From Verrucomicrobiia bacterium (GTDB lineage Bacteria > Verrucomicrobiota > Verrucomicrobiia > Opitutales > Cerasicoccaceae): DNA of 64,000 nt. The stretch covers positions 249,136 to 313,135 of the forward strand of contig JAUIHT010000002.1 in NCBI GenBank assembly GCA_030432235.1, read 5' to 3'. Shown in pieces: positions 9,741-49,414 of this stretch (position 1 is its first letter; the number at the start of each line of letters is the position of its first letter). The notes beneath the pieces were generated by a model that saw nothing but the letters and a program-made list of their open reading frames with translations, was not told the origin of the DNA and ran no database searches. Both the position numbers and the translations under genes were made by a program.

Positions 9741-10696
9741 GCAGTGGCAGCCTCGTGCTGAATCCGTCGACGCGCCAGGGCGAGGGCCAGCAGACCCTTG
9801 CGCGGGCTGAATATCCACGCCACGCCGAAGAGCGCACCGGCCACCACGACCATCGCCCCGGCAATGCTCGTATCCAGCCACAGCGCCAGGTGGAAGCCCA
9901 GCAGCGAATACATAGCGCCCAGCGGCAAAGTCAGGCCTAGAATAAGCGGCAGGCGATCCGTCAGCATGGTGCCGGTGACCGCCGGAAAAATCAGCATGGC
10001 AATCACCAGAATAACGCCTACGGCCTCGAAGGAGCTCACCACGGTGACGGACAGGCAGAACATCAGCCCGTAGTGATAGACACTCGCGCGGATGCCCAAC
10101 GAACGTGCCAACGCGGGGTCGAAGGACGTCACCAGCAATTGCTTGTAGAAAAGAAACAGCAACGCCACCAGAACCAGGAACACTATCCCCATCTGCAGCA
10201 CCGGCCACGGGCCGAGGCTGACCGAGCCGATGCGCGCCTCCTGCATCAGCGGCATGAGCCCAATCTCGCCGTAGAGCACGCAGTCCGGATCGAGGTCCAC
10301 CTTGTCCGCGAAGAGCGCCAACAGGATGACACCGAGGGCAAAGAGAGTCGAAAACACAATGCCGAGGGCTGCGTCCGGCTTGACTCGCGAGCCGCGATGG
10401 ATGGCCTCGATAAGCGCAACGGTGACCAGTCCCGCCGCCACTGCTCCCGCCATCATCGGCAGCACACCGCGCGAACCCGATATCAGAAACGCAATGACGA
10501 TGCCCGGCAGGATGCTGTGGCTGATGGCGTCCCCCACCAGCGCCATGCGCCGGAAGACCAGAAACGTGCCGACCAATCCGCAGGCCGCGCTGACTAGAAA
10601 CCCCATGCCGACTATCCAGGCCGTGCCCACGGGGTCCCACTGCCAGGGCTCGACGAAGACAGTCTGAAAATCGAATGCTGGAATGAAGCCGTTCAT
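9737..10696 (-). CDS. metal (Mn/Zn/Fe) ABC transporter permease, ZnuB/MntB/YtgD-like
   Basis: 319 aa, polytopic, with ABC-3 family motifs (GDAISHSILPG, conserved permease core). Last gene of the minus-strand metal-importer operon. Confidence 0.85.
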   Translation of the reverse strand: MNGFIPAFDFQTVFVEPWQWDPVGTAWIVGMGFLVSAACGLVGTFLVFRRMALVGDAISHSILPGIVIAFLISGSRGVLPMMAGAVAAGLVTVALIEAIHRGSRVKPDAALGIVFSTLFALGVILLALFADKVDLDPDCVLYGEIGLMPLMQEARIGSVSLGPWPVLQMGIVFLVLVALLFLFYKQLLVTSFDPALARSLGIRASVYHYGLMFCLSVTVVSSFEAVGVILVIAMLIFPAVTGTMLTDRLPLILGLTLPLGAMYSLLGFHLALWLDTSIAGAMVVVAGALFGVAWIFSPRKGLLALALARRRIQHEAATA

Positions 10697-12273
10697 GAGC
10701 CGGGTTGACGGTAGCCCGTGGCGGCGGAATCACCGGCGGGTGCAGGTTGCAGGGTTTGCGGGATGGGTTTGCCGTGCGGATCGAGCTGTGGGTAGTTAAG
10801 CCGCTTCTCCAGTTCGCGCACAATCTCCTCGCCCAGGATGTGCTCAACGCGCTCGGCGTCGTCGTGAACATGATCGGCGGCGTACTGCGCGGCATTGGTC
10901 AGGTAAAGCTCCCAAAGACGGTGGTTGCGCACGACCTCGCTGGCCCGACGCCAGCCGCTGGGCGTCAACTGCACGTTGCGATGGGTGCCGGGCAGGCCGT
11001 TCTCCGTAGCCTGTACCACGGTGGCGAAGCCCGCTCGGGCCAAGGCGGCGGCGCGTTCCTCGGTTTCCGGCAGCGACTCGTTACGCTGAGCGGCGAGTTG
11101 GCCAAGGTTAAAACTTTCTTCGGCAAAGTTGCTTTGCTCTGCCAAGTGATAGAGAGCCTTCAAGGTGTTCTCATCGCGCACACGGCGGCGACGGCTCGCC
11201 TGCCGGAACCAGCGCGTAATCAGCCCGTGGCGCGGCCCGGCGAAGTAGGCCACGGTAAAGGCCACGCCTGCGCCCACCACCATAAAGGGGCCCGTCGGCA
11301 GGCTGTGCCCGAGGAAGGACAGAAAGGCGCCCAGCACCGCGCTGCCCACCCCGATGAGCGCGGCCAGCGTTAGCATCACGCCCATGCGGTCGGTCAACAG
11401 ATAGGCCGTGGCCGCCGGGGTGATGAGCATGGCCGAGACCAGCACCACGCCGGTGGCCTGCAGGGAAATCACCACCGCAAAAGCCAGCAGCGACATCAAC
11501 AGACTGTGCAGCATCCCAGTGGCCATACCGGAGCTACGCGCGAATCCGACGTCGAAGCTCGTGGTCAGCAGCTCCTTGTAAAAGAGCGCCACGGCCAGCA
11601 GCGCACAGGCGGTCACGATGCCCATCAACCAGAGGTCCTGAGTTGAGAGCGCGGCGGCCTGACCAAAGAGAAACTTGTCGATGCCGCTTTTGTTGCCCGT
11701 CGGCGAACGTTGGATCATGACGAAGAGGCAAATGCCCACAGCGTAAAATCCCGCCAGCACCATGCCCAGCGCACCGTCCTCCTTTACCGGCGTGGTCTTC
11801 TTGATCGCGCCAACCAGCCAGGTGCCGGCCAGCCCGGCCAGCGTCGCACCGATGAAAATGGCCAACGGATTCTTACTGGCGGCCCAGAGGAAGCCGAGCG
11901 CCACCCCTGGCATGACGGCGTGCGAGAGCGTGTCCCCCATGAGCGAGAGTTTGCGCACCACGATGAAGGCCCCGAGCAGCCCGCAGCAAACACCCATCAG
12001 GACCGACCCGATAAGCGCGTTGACCACCGCAGGATCGCTCAGGCTCCAGAAGCGCGCAGCCTGCTCCAGCCAGTCGGTCTCGCGCAGGTCACCGATTTTT
12101 GCCGCGTGGGCCAGGGATGTCCCAAACAGTAACCATAATATAAATATGGTTTTTTTCAGCCGCAGATGAAACGCAGATGAAACGCAGATTCGGGAGAAAA
12201 TAATCTGCGTAAATCTGCGCAAATCCGCGGCAAAAGAAAATGCCTGCTTGCTGATGGCGTCCTCCTTCATCAT
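10693..12273 (-). CDS. metal ABC permease fused to a complete DtxR-family repressor domain (YtgC-YtgR-like)
   Basis: N-terminal two-thirds is a ZnuB-type permease (LMGDTLSHAVMPGVALG...). The C-terminal 150 aa aligns to the DtxR wHTH plus metal-binding/dimerisation domain (ENTLKALYHLAEQS...RNHRLWELYLTN...ADHVHDDAERVEHILGEEIVRELEKRLNYPQLDPHGKPIP). The ATGATG start overlaps the znuC-like stop (ATGA). The first 40 codons are encoded by a CGCAGAT repeat array, so the true start may lie downstream. Confidence 0.8.
   Translation of the reverse strand: MMKEDAISKQAFSFAADLRRFTQIIFSRICVSSAFHLRLKKTIFILWLLFGTSLAHAAKIGDLRETDWLEQAARFWSLSDPAVVNALIGSVLMGVCCGLLGAFIVVRKLSLMGDTLSHAVMPGVALGFLWAASKNPLAIFIGATLAGLAGTWLVGAIKKTTPVKEDGALGMVLAGFYAVGICLFVMIQRSPTGNKSGIDKFLFGQAAALSTQDLWLMGIVTACALLAVALFYKELLTTSFDVGFARSSGMATGMLHSLLMSLLAFAVVISLQATGVVLVSAMLITPAATAYLLTDRMGVMLTLAALIGVGSAVLGAFLSFLGHSLPTGPFMVVGAGVAFTVAYFAGPRHGLITRWFRQASRRRRVRDENTLKALYHLAEQSNFAEESFNLGQLAAQRNESLPETEERAAALARAGFATVVQATENGLPGTHRNVQLTPSGWRRASEVVRNHRLWELYLTNAAQYAADHVHDDAERVEHILGEEIVRELEKRLNYPQLDPHGKPIPQTLQPAPAGDSAATGYRQPGS
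12160..12230. repeat. self-complementary array: 3 direct CGCAGAT heptamers (11-bp spacing), 13-nt spacer, 3 inverted ATCTGCG heptamers (10-bp spacing)
   Basis: Read directly: CCGCAGATGAAACGCAGATGAAACGCAGATT-cgggagaaaataa-TCTGCGTAAATCTGCGCAAATCCGCGG. The same heptamer arrays recur at 23301..23329 and 23744..23771. Confidence 0.6.
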
Positions 12274-23283: not shown

Positions 23284-23300
23284 GGGAGGTTTTTATTTAT

Positions 23301-23329
23301 CCGCAGATTTACGCAGATGAGCGCAGATT
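23301..23329. repeat. three direct CGCAGAT heptamers, 10-bp spacing
   Basis: CCGCAGATTTACGCAGATGAGCGCAGATTG, located between the pheS start and the stop of the 143-aa gene. Confidence 0.6.
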
Positions 23330-23333
23330 GTAT

Positions 23334-23765
23334 TCAAAAGTCAGGTATTATTTTAACAGGATAAGATTCTAATAACTCAACCAAAGTGACTTCATTTTTA
23401 TCTACGATAAGGAAAACAGTCTCTTTATTGGTGTTCGTTAAGAATAGTAGAGTAACCCACTCTCTCTTTTGGGGTTCTGAACTAGAAACAAAAGGATCAT
23501 CAGACTCGACCGTACCCAATGAACAAAAAATTCGAGCGGAATCCAAAGGGTCTCTGGCAATTGGTTCGTCGCTCACCAGCAAGAATACTTCATTGGGCTT
23601 ATCAGTCCAAACAATAGAAATCCCAAGTGAGTTCTTTTCTTTATCTAACTCTAGTTCGATTATTTTAATGCTATCGCCCAAAGGCTTATCAGCACACAGA
23701 TATGCAGGCATGCTACATAGCAGCGATAAAAGCACTGCCTTAAATCTGCGGAAATCTGCGTTCAT
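23334..23765 (-). CDS. hypothetical secreted protein or lipoprotein, low GC, inserted between rplT and pheS
   Basis: 143 aa. N-terminus MNADFRRFKAVLLSLLCSMPAYLCADK is signal-peptide-like. The first 9 codons are encoded by the 23744..23771 heptamer array. The gene is flanked by inverted CGCAGAT arrays. Confidence 0.4.
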   Translation of the reverse strand: MNADFRRFKAVLLSLLCSMPAYLCADKPLGDSIKIIELELDKEKNSLGISIVWTDKPNEVFLLVSDEPIARDPLDSARIFCSLGTVESDDPFVSSSEPQKREWVTLLFLTNTNKETVFLIVDKNEVTLVELLESYPVKIIPDF

Positions 23766-23771
23766 CTGCGG
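23744..23771. repeat. three ATCTGCG heptamers (inverse of CGCAGAT), 10-11 bp spacing
   Basis: AATCTGCGGAAATCTGCGTTCATCTGCGG. Inverted relative to the 23301..23329 array, so the two arrays bracket the 143-aa gene. Confidence 0.6.
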
Positions 23772-23783
23772 CTAAAATTCACC

Positions 23784-23812
23784 AATAAAAAAGGCGGCCA
23801 GATTGGGCCGCC
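23784..23812 (-). terminator. rho-independent terminator after rplT (minus strand)
   Basis: GGCGGCC-agattg-GGCCGCC stem. On the minus strand it is followed by TTTTTTATT. Confidence 0.55.
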
Positions 23813-23844
23813 TTTCGGAGTGGGTCAAATGGATTGTCTCGGCT

Positions 23845-32578: not shown

Positions 32579-32965
32579 TGTTAATGCAGGACTGACGGCC
32601 TGCGTTCGTTTTGGCCATAGGACCAAAGTGTCTAAAAAATGAGCCCGGGAGAGCGGACGACGAGGACGCGCCGCCACAGGCAAGCTCCACGGGGCTCGGC
32701 TTGAGCCGGGGTCAAACCGGAGCGCAGCCATGACTCCGCTTCCAACACCACTGTATCAGTCTCCTAATACAGATGCGTTTTCCACTTCGTGCATGCTTTG
32801 CTCCGGTTGTCTCCGGGCGGTATCCGCCGGGCCGCTGGTGGGCTGCCTGCTGGAGCCAGGGAAGAACGCCCCACACGGACGCATGACGCCCCTGCCCTGC
32901 TCCGGGCTTTGCGTGTCGCCGCCGCTCTCCGCGGGCGGTTTTCGAAGCCGGTGATTAGCCGGCGG

Positions 32966-33038
32966 GTGACGAGGAGGATTCGAACCTCCGACATCCGGCT
33001 CCCTAAGCCAGTGTGCTATCCACTGCACTACCGTCGCA
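32966..33038 (-). tRNA. tRNA-Pro-like, anticodon AGG (A34)
   Basis: Hand-folded cloverleaf: acceptor GCGACGG/TCGTCAC (one C-A mismatch), D arm GTGC-AGTGGATA-GCAC, anticodon stem CTGGC/GCCGG with loop TTAGGGA, T arm GGAGG-TTCGAAT-CCTCC. The Pro-type loop (U33, G37, A38) has A at position 34. Its 5' G at 33038 is shared with the neighbouring tRNA. Confidence 0.5.
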
Positions 33039-33110
33039 TACTGTCCGGGAATCGAACCCGAGACCGATGGTTTATGAGACCACTGCTCTACCAACTGAGC
33101 TACCAGTATC
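33038..33110 (-). tRNA. tRNA-Met (CAU), elongator-like (an Ile2/lysidine type cannot be excluded)
   Basis: Acceptor ATACTGG/ACAGTAT (A1-U72, G7.A66 mismatch), D arm GCTC-AGTTGGTA-GAGC, anticodon loop CTCATAA, T arm TCGGG-TTCGATT-CCCGG. The discriminator position coincides with G1 of the next tRNA. Confidence 0.6.
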
Positions 33111-33112
33111 GT

Positions 33113-33188
33113 GGTGCGGCCCGCTGGAGTCGAACCAGCGACCTACCCCTTCGTACAGGGCTGCTCTACCAACTGAGCTAGGGCCGCA
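33113..33188 (-). tRNA. tRNA-Arg (ACG)
   Basis: Perfect acceptor GCGGCCC/GGGCCGC, D arm GCTC-AGTTGGTA-GAGC, anticodon loop GTACGAA, T arm GCTGG-TTCGACT-CCAGC, discriminator A, CCA encoded. Confidence 0.85.
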
Positions 33189-33289
33189 TTTTCCTGAGAC
33201 CGTCCAGAACGTCAAGCGGGACACCGCACTCCAACAGGCTGGGCCAGGGAATACCGTGCCGCCGACCGGCGATCAGAAAGTGATATATG

Positions 33290-33360
33290 CTGCGGGGGAA
33301 GGATTCGAACCTTCGATGGCGGAATCAAAATCCGCTGTGTTACCGCTACACCACCCCGCA
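33290..33360 (-). tRNA. tRNA-Gln (UUG)
   Basis: Acceptor TGCGGGG/CCCCGCA (U1-A72, as in bacterial Gln), D arm GTGT-AGCGGTA-ACAC, anticodon loop TTTTGAT, T arm GAAGG-TTCGAAT-CCTTC, discriminator G. Confidence 0.8.
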
Positions 33361-33370
33361 AGGTAAAAAG

Positions 33371-33442
33371 TATCCGCAGCCGGAATCGAACCGGCGTTCT
33401 CACAGTGAAAGCGTGATGTCCTGACCACTAGACGATGCGGAC
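33371..33442 (-). tRNA. tRNA-Glu (UUC)
   Basis: Acceptor GTCCGCA/TGCGGAT (G1.U72 wobble), D arm GTCT-AGTGGTCA-GGAC, anticodon loop CTTTCAC, T arm GCCGG-TTCGATT-CCGGC. Confidence 0.75.
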
Positions 33443-33448
33443 AAAAAG

Positions 33449-33524
33449 TGGAGGCGCCGCCAGGATTCGAACCTGGTGAAACGGATTTTGCAGACCCGTG
33501 CCCTGGCCATTCGGGATCGGCGCC
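33449..33524 (-). tRNA. tRNA-Cys (GCA)
   Basis: Acceptor GGCGCCG/CGGCGCC, 3-bp D stem, anticodon loop CTGCAAA, T arm CCAGG-TTCGAAT-CCTGG, U73 discriminator (Cys identity element), CCA encoded. Confidence 0.8.
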
Positions 33525-33664
33525 GTATCAGATAAAAAACTTCGGGAGGCCGCCGCCCGGTCACCCCCGCAACACCTGTCAGGGTGCCATTGCCTGGCGC
33601 TATGTGACCGGGTGGGCTGCCTTCATCCCGAAATGTGTTTTGGGGATACTGTTAGAACCCCAAG

Positions 33665-33737
33665 TGGGAGCACATGGTTTCGAGCCATGACCTCCCGGTC
33701 TTCAACCGGACGTGCAGACCATCTACACCATACTCCC
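33665..33737 (-). tRNA. tRNA-Phe (GAA) with non-canonical T loop
   Basis: Acceptor GGGAGTA/TGCTCCC, D arm GTGT-(9-nt loop)-GCAC with G18G19, anticodon loop TTGAAGA (G37 rather than A37), T arm CATGG-CTCGAAA-CCATG (C at position 54). Confidence 0.6.
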
Positions 33738-33745
33738 TGAAATGG

Positions 33746-33818
33746 CTCGAAGGGCAGGCTACGATCCTGCAACTGCGTCCTTAACAGGGACGTGTTCTGC
33801 CAATTGAACTACCTTCGA
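33746..33818 (-). tRNA. tRNA-Asn (GUU) with non-canonical T loop
   Basis: Perfect acceptor TCGAAGG/CCTTCGA (U1-A72, as in E. coli Asn), D arm GTTC-AATTGGCA-GAAC, anticodon loop CTGTTAA, T arm GCAGG-ATCGTAG-CCTGC (A54/U58 swapped relative to the usual T54/A58), discriminator G. Confidence 0.65.
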
Positions 33819-49331: not shown

Positions 49332-49414
49332 GGAAAACGTTCAAACCACGGAAGACACGGAAAACACAGAAGAAAAGACTAAACGTAGATAATGCCGTGT
49401 CTTGGCAGTTTCCT

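Follow-up and report, generated by a model that had tools for sequence, protein, structure and literature searches.

The cyanobacterial STRR heptamers of Mazel et al. 1990 are said to be contiguous direct repeats. Another 7-mer, TAACTGA, forms direct repeats in Beggiatoaceae, Cyanobacteria and Bacteroidetes (PMC4679880). Coxiella's intervening sequence (IVS) is a 428-nt insert with a GC content below that of its host, a 28-bp terminal stem that is cut by RNase III, and one small open reading frame (ORF) for an S23p protein (PMC4990558). Here, we describe arrays of three CGCAGAT heptamers in a stretch of 64,000 nt (the window) from a Verrucomicrobiia bacterium (contig JAUIHT010000002.1, forward-strand positions 249,136 to 313,135). 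The arrays are found at locus A, within the recorded reading frame of a metal-transporter permease, and at loci B and C, which lie on either side of a 143-aa ORF between rplT and pheS.

These arrays probably serve as the terminal inverted repeats of miniature selfish cassettes, which form a family that spreads horizontally. The reading is carried by the membership of the window loci in a widespread family, by the link of that family to a gene for a GxxExxY protein, by the covariation of the two arms and by the absence of both insertions from relatives, each of which is demonstrated by comparison of sequences. We rate the family as a hairpin-bounded selfish element that resembles an IVS or a MITE (a miniature transposable element with inverted repeats). 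Full-text literature searches by array string and by family name returned no description of these ends. This agrees with an earlier annotation of the window (the original prediction), which considered the element undescribed for this lineage, although that statement was too modest, as the element is not specific to the lineage.

Phased heptamer arrays in the window

The arrays and the features next to them are the following.

12120..12270 (~150 bp), AT-rich tract with the locus A hairpin, 30-52% GC in 40-bp windows, at the ATP-binding cassette (ABC) ATPase/permease junction
12160..12189, plus strand, left arm of locus A: C and three CGCAGAT units at 12161, 12172 and 12183, with GAAA spacers and an 11-bp period
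12190..12202, loop of locus A, 13 nt
12203..12230, minus strand, right arm of locus A: ATCTGCG at 12203-12209 and 12213-12219, ATCCGCG at 12223-12229, then G, with a 10-bp period
23297..23328, plus strand, array B: TTATC and CGCAGAT at 23302, 23312 and 23322
23334..23765, minus strand, cargo ORF of the cassette: 143 aa, signal-like N-terminus, ~38% GC, ATG inside array C (CAG-ATG-AAC)
23744..23775, minus strand, array C: ATCTGCG at 23744, 23754 and 23764, read on the minus strand as TTAGC and three CGCAGAT units
23789..23816, minus strand, intrinsic terminator of rplT: host DNA outside the element, conserved in relatives L124, L125 and L126

The original prediction had reported three loci with three CGCAGAT units each at 10-11 bp, and these are indeed present, far above the level of shuffled sequence. 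The heptamer CGCAGAT occurs 22 times in the window against 10.8 expected, a count that was reached in 0 of 100 shuffles. Phased combinations are more strongly enriched, with five cases of GCAGAT-N3-4-GCAGAT against 0.02 expected, and eight pairs of C[AG]CNGAT at 10-11 bp against 0.06 in shuffles, all eight of which belong to loci A, B and C.

Locus A had been described as self-complementary, with three direct units, a 13-nt loop and three inverted units, and this description is accurate except that the outermost inverted unit of the right arm is a one-mismatch variant, CGCGGAT. The locus folds into three stems of 8-9 bp with internal loops between them (-40.2 kcal/mol, z = -6.5), and a T-run and CAG precede its left arm. 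Arrays B and C are mutually inverted on either side of the 143-aa ORF. Array C is the 5' arm of the cassette and begins 13 bp past the T-run of the rplT terminator, while array B forms the 3' arm in the sense of the cassette ORF (minus strand) and ends 14 bp upstream of the pheS start codon. The duplex of the two arms has an energy of -45.9 kcal/mol.

Members of the family carry at least 2-3 units of the form C-R-C-N-R-A-N at a spacing of 9-11 bp, and the window loci have 3+3 (A), three (B) and three (C) such units. An inverted pairing partner arm is present both at locus A and for B/C. The family has an outer edge of TTA[A/G]C or GGAAC at one end and the complement at the opposite end, and the window edges are of this type: TTAGC at C, TTATC (one mismatch) at B, and CAGC/GC at A. 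No target-site duplication is visible at locus A or at B/C.

We considered intrinsic termination as a role for the arrays and rejected it. On both strands, the hairpin is preceded by its T-run and followed by the A-run, which places the U-run on the wrong side.

Two probable lineage-specific insertions

The source organism belongs to the Opitutia of the Verrucomicrobiota. This placement is based on PheS, which shares 74% identity with the Ruficoccus protein and 73% with that of Cerasicoccus (Puniceicoccales), and on the permease, which is 66% identical to that of Rubellicoccus. As judged from the sequences of the two junctions in relatives, comparison shows both window copies to be lineage-specific insertions, one of them ORF-less and the other with an orphan cargo gene.

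The genes at locus A are all on the minus strand, in the order ZnuA-like binding protein, ABC ATPase, locus A and ABC-3 permease. The permease (10693-12273, minus strand) consists of an ABC-3 domain fused to a DtxR-type metal-binding/dimerisation C-terminal domain (PF00950 + PF02742). In relatives with 82% and 69% identical permeases, the ATPase stop codon lies 9 bp from the permease start or overlaps it (a junction of 0-9 bp), and ~110 bp of the window (12160-12270), including the hairpin, have no counterpart. Locus A is thus probably an ORF-less hairpin copy that was inserted at a Mn/Zn-type ABC ATPase/permease junction. Since locus A is lacking in relatives, ORF-less hairpins appear to be insertions themselves, so that arrays would move without a gene in cis.

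The permease homologues start with a signal-like peptide ending ...A|AKIGD. In the window, this peptide is encoded by AT-rich DNA (~30% GC at 12115-12155), unlike the remainder of the gene, and no ATG, GTG or TTG is found between the hairpin and the peptide. The recorded permease ORF (526 aa; NCBI and Logan sources) starts at an ATGA overlap with the ATPase stop codon and continues in frame through the hairpin, where its read-through peptide is ADLRRF. The likeness of this peptide to ADFRRF at array C, to which the original prediction drew attention, is real but trivial, because the same heptamer DNA is read in the same frame.

The minus-strand order at the second site is rpmI, rplT, the intrinsic terminator, array C, the 143-aa ORF, array B and pheS. 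The two arrays probably form the ends of one 479-bp cassette between the rplT terminator and pheS. Both its length, within the family range of 410-540 bp, and its AT-rich interior are typical of the family. The opposite orientation of B and C around a low-GC gene, as originally described, is confirmed, with 29-48% GC between B and C (interior 38%) against ~60% for the window. The start of the ORF, CAG-ATG-AAC-GCA-GAT, encodes MNADF, and the start codon is therefore located in the 5' arm; about half of the family's cassettes have it in or against this arm. It is likely that this orphan secreted-type ORF takes the place of the nuclease gene (see below) and uses the ATG embedded in the array. The ORF has neither an exact record nor a homologue among 5.8 billion proteins, no match in Pfam, NCBIfam or PADLOC, and only a chance-level match among the PHROGs (E = 0.075). 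A single-sequence AlphaFold model was uninformative (pLDDT 40.8).

The rplT terminator, a hairpin separate from the arrays, is the upstream border of an insertion hot spot. The original prediction called the rplT-pheS junction otherwise universal, which is too strong, as the junction differs in each of four relatives. The cassette is absent from their junctions, which are empty or contain a hairpin of other heptamers or another ORF. Ruficoccus sp. ZRK36 (L126, CP080649) has a plain spacer of 141 bp from the rplT stop to the pheS start, with no insertion. The closest relative (L124, 80% PheS identity) carries an ORF-less CACGAAG/CACAAAG hairpin at the same position (2389-2479; -54 kcal/mol, z = -10), which could be an independent insertion into the hot spot or the result of concerted change of an orthologous element. 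In L125, a TARA contig, this junction contains an unrelated 167-aa lipoprotein-like ORF (1981-2484) without arrays and without a Pfam or NCBIfam match. Small foreign genes thus gather downstream of the rplT terminator through more than one route. Additionally, Ruficoccus sp. ZRK36 contains a complete mini-cassette at its pheS-pheT junction (L126:3550-3825), with a 66-aa hydrophobic membrane ORF and a 9-bp spacing; its arms are TTAAC-CACAGAG/CACAAAG/CACAGAG ... CTCTGTG x3-GTTAA.

The suggestion that the arrays mark the boundary of a small mobile cassette is supported by these comparisons, in which the arrays appear as the inverted ends of a widespread insertion element and both loci are absent at the junctions of relatives. 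In short-read data, contigs identical to the window stop and start within array C, as expected from a multicopy repeat.

A sigma-70-like site (TTAAAA-18-TACAAT, 23327-23356, minus strand) has its -10 box at the border of the cassette interior and array B and is directed towards pheS. This single site does not exceed the yield of shuffled sequence, and we rejected the promoter reading; a site in this position would bear on the transcription of pheS after the insertion.

Distribution and anatomy of the array family

We searched one-genome-per-species contigs (596 Gb) for the triple array CGCAGAT-N3-4-CGCAGAT-N3-4-CGCAGAT. It is present in at least 120 genome stretches, compared to a chance estimate of ~1 (596 Gb x 2 strands x 4 gap combinations / 4^21). 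Hosts among the matches listed include Verrucomicrobiota, Planctomycetota, Acidobacteriota, Cyanobacteria, Nitrospirota, Chloroflexota, Proteobacteria and Omnitrophota, and the archaeal Methanoperedens and Methanosarcinales. The triple array was also found in 35 viral contigs, some of which have 3-4 hairpins in the gaps that separate co-directional phage genes. The elements may be passed from one host to another by phages.

The anatomy of the family was derived from 132 arrays, including those of the window. The outer edge before the first unit is polar and conserved, T-T-A-(A/G)-C. The spacers are purine-rich (GAA 79, AAA 47, GGA 23), and the loops, 10 to over 400 bp in length, are richer in AT than the host. 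An inverted partner follows within 1.5 kb downstream of 56 of the 132 arrays, compared to 10 in the opposite (control) orientation. Sister heptamers at the same loci (CACAGAT, CGCCGAT and CGCTGAT) extend the unit to a consensus of C-R-C-N-G-A-T.

The genes that neighbour the arrays are unrelated housekeeping and phage genes. An all-against-all BLAST comparison of 2987 ORFs within 2.5 kb of the arrays revealed no recurrent transposase, regulator or replication gene and no other large recurrent family, the largest being present at 6 of 120 loci; the exception to this lack of recurrence is a small PDDEXK_3 cluster. Similarly, a Pfam scan of 150 array-abutting ORFs found assorted housekeeping domains apart from PF13366.

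Some loci contain more complex arrangements. At L011:5100-5290, the loop of a larger hairpin of CACGGAT units contains a nested CGCAGAT array. Seven CGCAGATGAA decamers follow each other in a run at L083:7227-7293, and six ATCTGCGGTCG units with an 11-bp period are present at L133:1377-1438. The IMG/VR contigs L138/L143, L141/L147 and L151 each have 3-5 CGCAGAT hairpins, located between structural or other co-directional genes, with loops that are related but not identical.

Association with the GxxExxY gene

A single small protein family is found in or against the arms, at L065, L070, L114 and L077. It corresponds to PF13366 PDDEXK_3 (E = 3.6e-41) and to TIGR04256 'GxxExxY protein' (E = 5.7e-43). 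The D, E and K residues of the PD-(D/E)XK motif are invariant, and the GxxExxY profile has no match among PDB sequences. The function of PF13366 is recorded as 'Unknown', with multiple transfers between bacteria and archaea (PMC3424549).

In a reverse test, we collected 80 metagenome loci that encode relatives of the four arm-associated proteins; 76 of the genes were testable. An array (at least two units, within ~130 bp) lies on at least one side of the GxxExxY gene in 68 of the 76 (89%), on both sides in 50, and with three units on both sides in 29. Control windows in the same loci contain an array in only 27 of 902 cases (3%). The commonest units in the 50 two-sided cassettes are CGCAGAT (20), CACAGAT (14) and CGCCGAT (6), and the same heptamer is present at both ends in 33 of the 50, compared to 10.8 expected under random pairing. 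The gene is always located between the arms, in one orientation. In 28 of 60 cassettes, the 5' arm contains or abuts its first in-frame ATG, which gives rise to MNADER-, MNTD- and MDAD-type N-termini.

The GC content of the cassette genes is below that of the flanks in all 61 loci (61/61), and neighbouring genes are co-oriented with the cassette gene by 66 to 34. An abutting direct repeat of at least 2 bp was found at the arms of none of 51 cassettes, while ~4 were expected by chance. Within the 1.19 Mb of array-selected loci, there are just four PDDEXK_3 ORFs, and ORF-less hairpins are far more numerous than gene-bearing cassettes.

Covariation and pairing of the arms

Thirty-one cassettes of canonical geometry were used to analyze covariation. 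In this set, 90.1% of the arm cells are paired and 18 of 32 pairs show compensatory changes. Changes on both sides account for 100 cells, compared to 41.8 in shuffles (where 100 was reached in 0 of 500) and 24 or fewer in slid controls. In duplex energies calculated from the arms only, pairing is stronger with a cassette's own partner arm, with a family mean of -43.8 kcal/mol against -30.4 for swapped partners (p = 5e-10).

The pairing is stronger in the sense strand. Of 50 informative cassettes, 34 have the more stable duplex in sense and 16 in antisense (p = 0.008), and G.U pairs number 71 in sense against 39 in antisense. Position 4 of the heptamer is the least constrained and is paired in 69% of cases, compared to ~90% elsewhere.

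A proposed mechanism

We propose that each terminal repeat of the family is a unit of ~30 bp, comprising an outer TTA[A/G]C or GGAAC edge and three C-R-C-N-G-A-T heptamers that would face the same side of the helix, one turn apart. The canonical cassette would be 410-540 bp long, more AT-rich than its host, and dedicated to a single gene for a GxxExxY PD-(D/E)XK nuclease-like protein of ~125 aa. The ORF-less hairpin copies would retain just the two arms around a loop of 10-130 nt. In the sense transcript, the arms are expected to pair into an interrupted stem of ~30 bp. By analogy with the ORF-bearing IVS of 23S rRNA, this stem could be a substrate for an RNase III-type enzyme, and its processing may detach the RNA of the cassette from that of the host and gate translational initiation at the buried ATG. 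At the DNA level, a GxxExxY nuclease encoded elsewhere in the genome may act on the phased sites or on an extruded cruciform. Spread of this kind, without a staggered cut, would fit the absence of target-site duplications.

A further possibility, which we put forward tentatively and consider doubtful, is that the arms and the GxxExxY protein constitute a previously unrecognised class of mobile element that crosses the boundary between bacteria and archaea. The small nuclease would then recognise the three in-phase CRC-N-GAT sites of each arm, or the cruciform or hairpin extruded from them, and would both excise and insert the cassette without a staggered cut, with ORF-less hairpins riding in trans. 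The frame of the element, with stops and an ATG in the arm and a stem that RNase III could cleave, would permit life inside operons and the exchange of cargo, of which the 143-aa ORF may be an example. ORF-bearing rRNA IVS and the cyanobacterial tandem heptamer repeats would represent the same general architecture.

Alternative explanations

Several observations weigh against a family of selfish cassettes. The reverse test was biased, because its four queries came from array-selected loci and the 80 loci kept were the closest relatives (52-70% identity); the proportion of 89% may hold for a subfamily of PF13366 rather than for the whole family. The mismatches at position 4 fit protein recognition of CRC/GAT half-sites as well as they fit an RNA stem. 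An Rfam scan of 40 GxxExxY loci identified no rRNA, and the link to IVS is consequently one of architecture only. The cargo in the window is not PF13366/TIGR04256, and no GxxExxY/PDDEXK_3 ORF is present within the 64 kb, which makes the window elements non-autonomous or cargo-swapped members. As the 143-aa ORF has no homologue, it could be a non-functional reading frame. Finally, the insertions were deduced from relatives at 69-82% protein identity, as no near-identical pair of filled and empty genomes was available.

The arrays could be a homing target instead of element ends, that is, the hairpin would be the primary multicopy element or a host structure, and the GxxExxY gene an invader similar to a homing endonuclease, which cleaves the hairpin and becomes copied into the loop, leaving the two halves of its recognition site as flanking arrays. 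This would account for the lack of target-site duplications, for the great excess of ORF-less hairpins over gene-bearing cassettes (four PDDEXK_3 ORFs in 1.19 Mb), for the fixed position and orientation of the gene between the arms, and for nested arrays such as that at L011. We consider it unlikely, since 28 of 60 cassettes have their first in-frame ATG within the arm or next to it, the gene and its arm sequence travel jointly across phyla, and ORF-less hairpins insert too, as seen from the absence of locus A in relatives. Less probable again is that the hairpins are host-beneficial RNA elements selected in place, such as intercistronic mRNA stabilisers, RNase III processing sites, or translational insulators or starters. 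Such a function is difficult to reconcile with an identical 7-mer from archaea to cyanobacteria, with elements that are AT-rich relative to every host and vary in presence at orthologous junctions, and with the tie to a multicopy nuclease-like gene. Many spacers also have no ATG or TGA (AAA 47 and GGA 23, compared to GAA 79). In this reading, the 10-bp spacing places the TGA and ATG of GATGAA in all three frames. In its favour, the elements lie between co-directional genes in operons and phage modules, the arms pair preferentially in the sense strand, and neighbouring genes tend to share the orientation of the cassette gene (66 to 34).

The original prediction also compared the pattern to MITEs and to repetitive extragenic palindromes (REPs). 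The term MITE-like is close to the evidence insofar as the arrays are inverted element ends; it is very unlikely that they form a classical MITE, REP or REPIN family that depends for its movement on a DDE transposase or a RAYT (HUH) enzyme acting in trans. Small size, many copies, terminal inverted repeats, intergenic hairpins and assemblies that break within the repeat are all traits of such families. However, abutting direct repeats of at least 2 bp are found in 0 of 51 cassettes (~4 expected by chance) and no transposase family recurs within 2.5 kb (at most 6 of 120 loci), which together exclude a classical MITE from our reading; in addition, the arrays have TTARC as their outer edge, where REPs have a GT[AG]G head, and the sequence is common to many phyla, whereas REPINs are species-specific. 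We give almost no credence to the arrays as sites for a transcription factor or iteron protein (OmpR/PhoB-like) regulating the tro-like operon and pheS; a regulator-binding or iteron-like array was the other possibility raised originally. The 10-11 bp direct repeats are typical of sites for winged-helix response regulators and the arrays do abut gene starts, but the same array lies beside unrelated genes in at least 120 genome stretches and in phage contigs, is absent from the same junctions in relatives and forms inverted pairs around foreign AT-rich DNA, with no recurrent regulator or replication gene nearby.

Other features of the window

One more array in the window is degenerate.

49340..49410, probable decayed relative: CACGGAA-GA-CACGGAA-AA-CACAGAA, 9-bp period, with a partial complementary segment (CCGTGTCTT)

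Two co-directional genes on the minus strand flank this array, which is probably an element of the same superfamily that has decayed. Eight tRNA genes are clustered within 850 bp on the minus strand (32965-33818). At the Rfam gathering score, only tRNAs match in the window, and permissive scans of both array loci returned chance-level matches only.

Implications

If the arrays are the ends of selfish cassettes, the 5' end of a metal-transporter permease gene and the stretch directly upstream of pheS have been reshaped by two lineage-specific insertions. The genes of GxxExxY/PF13366, a large family of uncharacterised function, are placed in a stereotyped cassette with phased-heptamer inverted ends, and the family gains a testable role as a nuclease that would act on its own ends. 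The orphan hairpins of environmental genomes, a very common class that numbers thousands and includes the two window elements, would likewise receive one testable explanation, which also extends to repeats that fragment short-read assemblies and yield spurious N-terminal extensions (the 526-aa permease annotation and small ORFs of the 'MNADERR' type). ORF-bearing rRNA IVS would be linked to a much broader population of intergenic elements, and a compact, naturally portable cassette that may insert anywhere in an operon is identified. The mini-cassette of Ruficoccus sp. ZRK36 sits in a cultured relative and thus in a tractable organism.

Comparison with known systems

The direct repeats of the arrays lie on one face of the helix with a period of 10-11 bp, as do those of response-regulator operators and plasmid iterons. 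In contrast to these, the arrays have no conserved regulator or replication neighbour, occur in unrelated gene contexts, and are paired in inverted orientation around foreign DNA.

Integron attC cassettes are also small, promoterless, often AT-rich and limited to a single ORF, and attC sites are imperfect palindromes of 60-140 bp, conserved in structure over sequence, with an AAC...GTT outer core. However, attC forms one compact hairpin 3' of each ORF, whereas the arms described here flank the ORF. There is no series of cassettes and no match to the full RYYYAAC/GTTRRRY boxes; of these boxes, the AAC/GTT core alone is common to both.

MITEs, Correia elements and REP/REPIN sequences are short, multicopy, and intergenic or intra-operon, with ends that fold into long hairpins, and their ORF-less copies exceed the gene-bearing ones, as is the case here. 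The present elements differ from them in having no target-site duplication, no DDE or HUH transposase partner found, ends made of three phased heptamers, and an end sequence that is common to many phyla and to both domains.

With TAACTGA and STRR repeats, the arrays share a specific 7-mer in short intergenic arrays, often just upstream of start codons, with a patchy distribution across phyla and no known mechanism. Those repeats are contiguous (7-bp period) and nearly all direct, while the units described here are spaced by 10-11 bp and the arms form inverted pairs that bracket a gene.

The IVS of Coxiella and Leptospira encode the four-helix-bundle S23p protein. We searched for S23p-like genes with a consensus query, and found them in IMG/VR contigs (L244-L260) bracketed by inverted arrays of short tandem units, which include GTTGGCT, CAACGTT, GTAGTCT and CGATTGTGG, among others, with periods of 7-11 bp. 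In L247-L250, the four-helix-bundle gene lies inside a conserved host ORF (...MFGRYSLD... / ...DNVIP..D...) and splits it. The IVS are located in rRNA helices 9, 25 and 45, whereas the window elements lie between protein-coding genes; the cargo families differ, and IVS termini are not described as phased heptamer arrays. The Coxiella IVS is tolerated in the transcript because RNase III cuts its stem (PMC4990558), and the window elements may be tolerated in the same way. Both systems have a sporadic, horizontally acquired distribution, and the B/C cassette shares with the IVS its basic plan, an inverted-repeat stem of ~28 bp around a small ORF in low-GC DNA.

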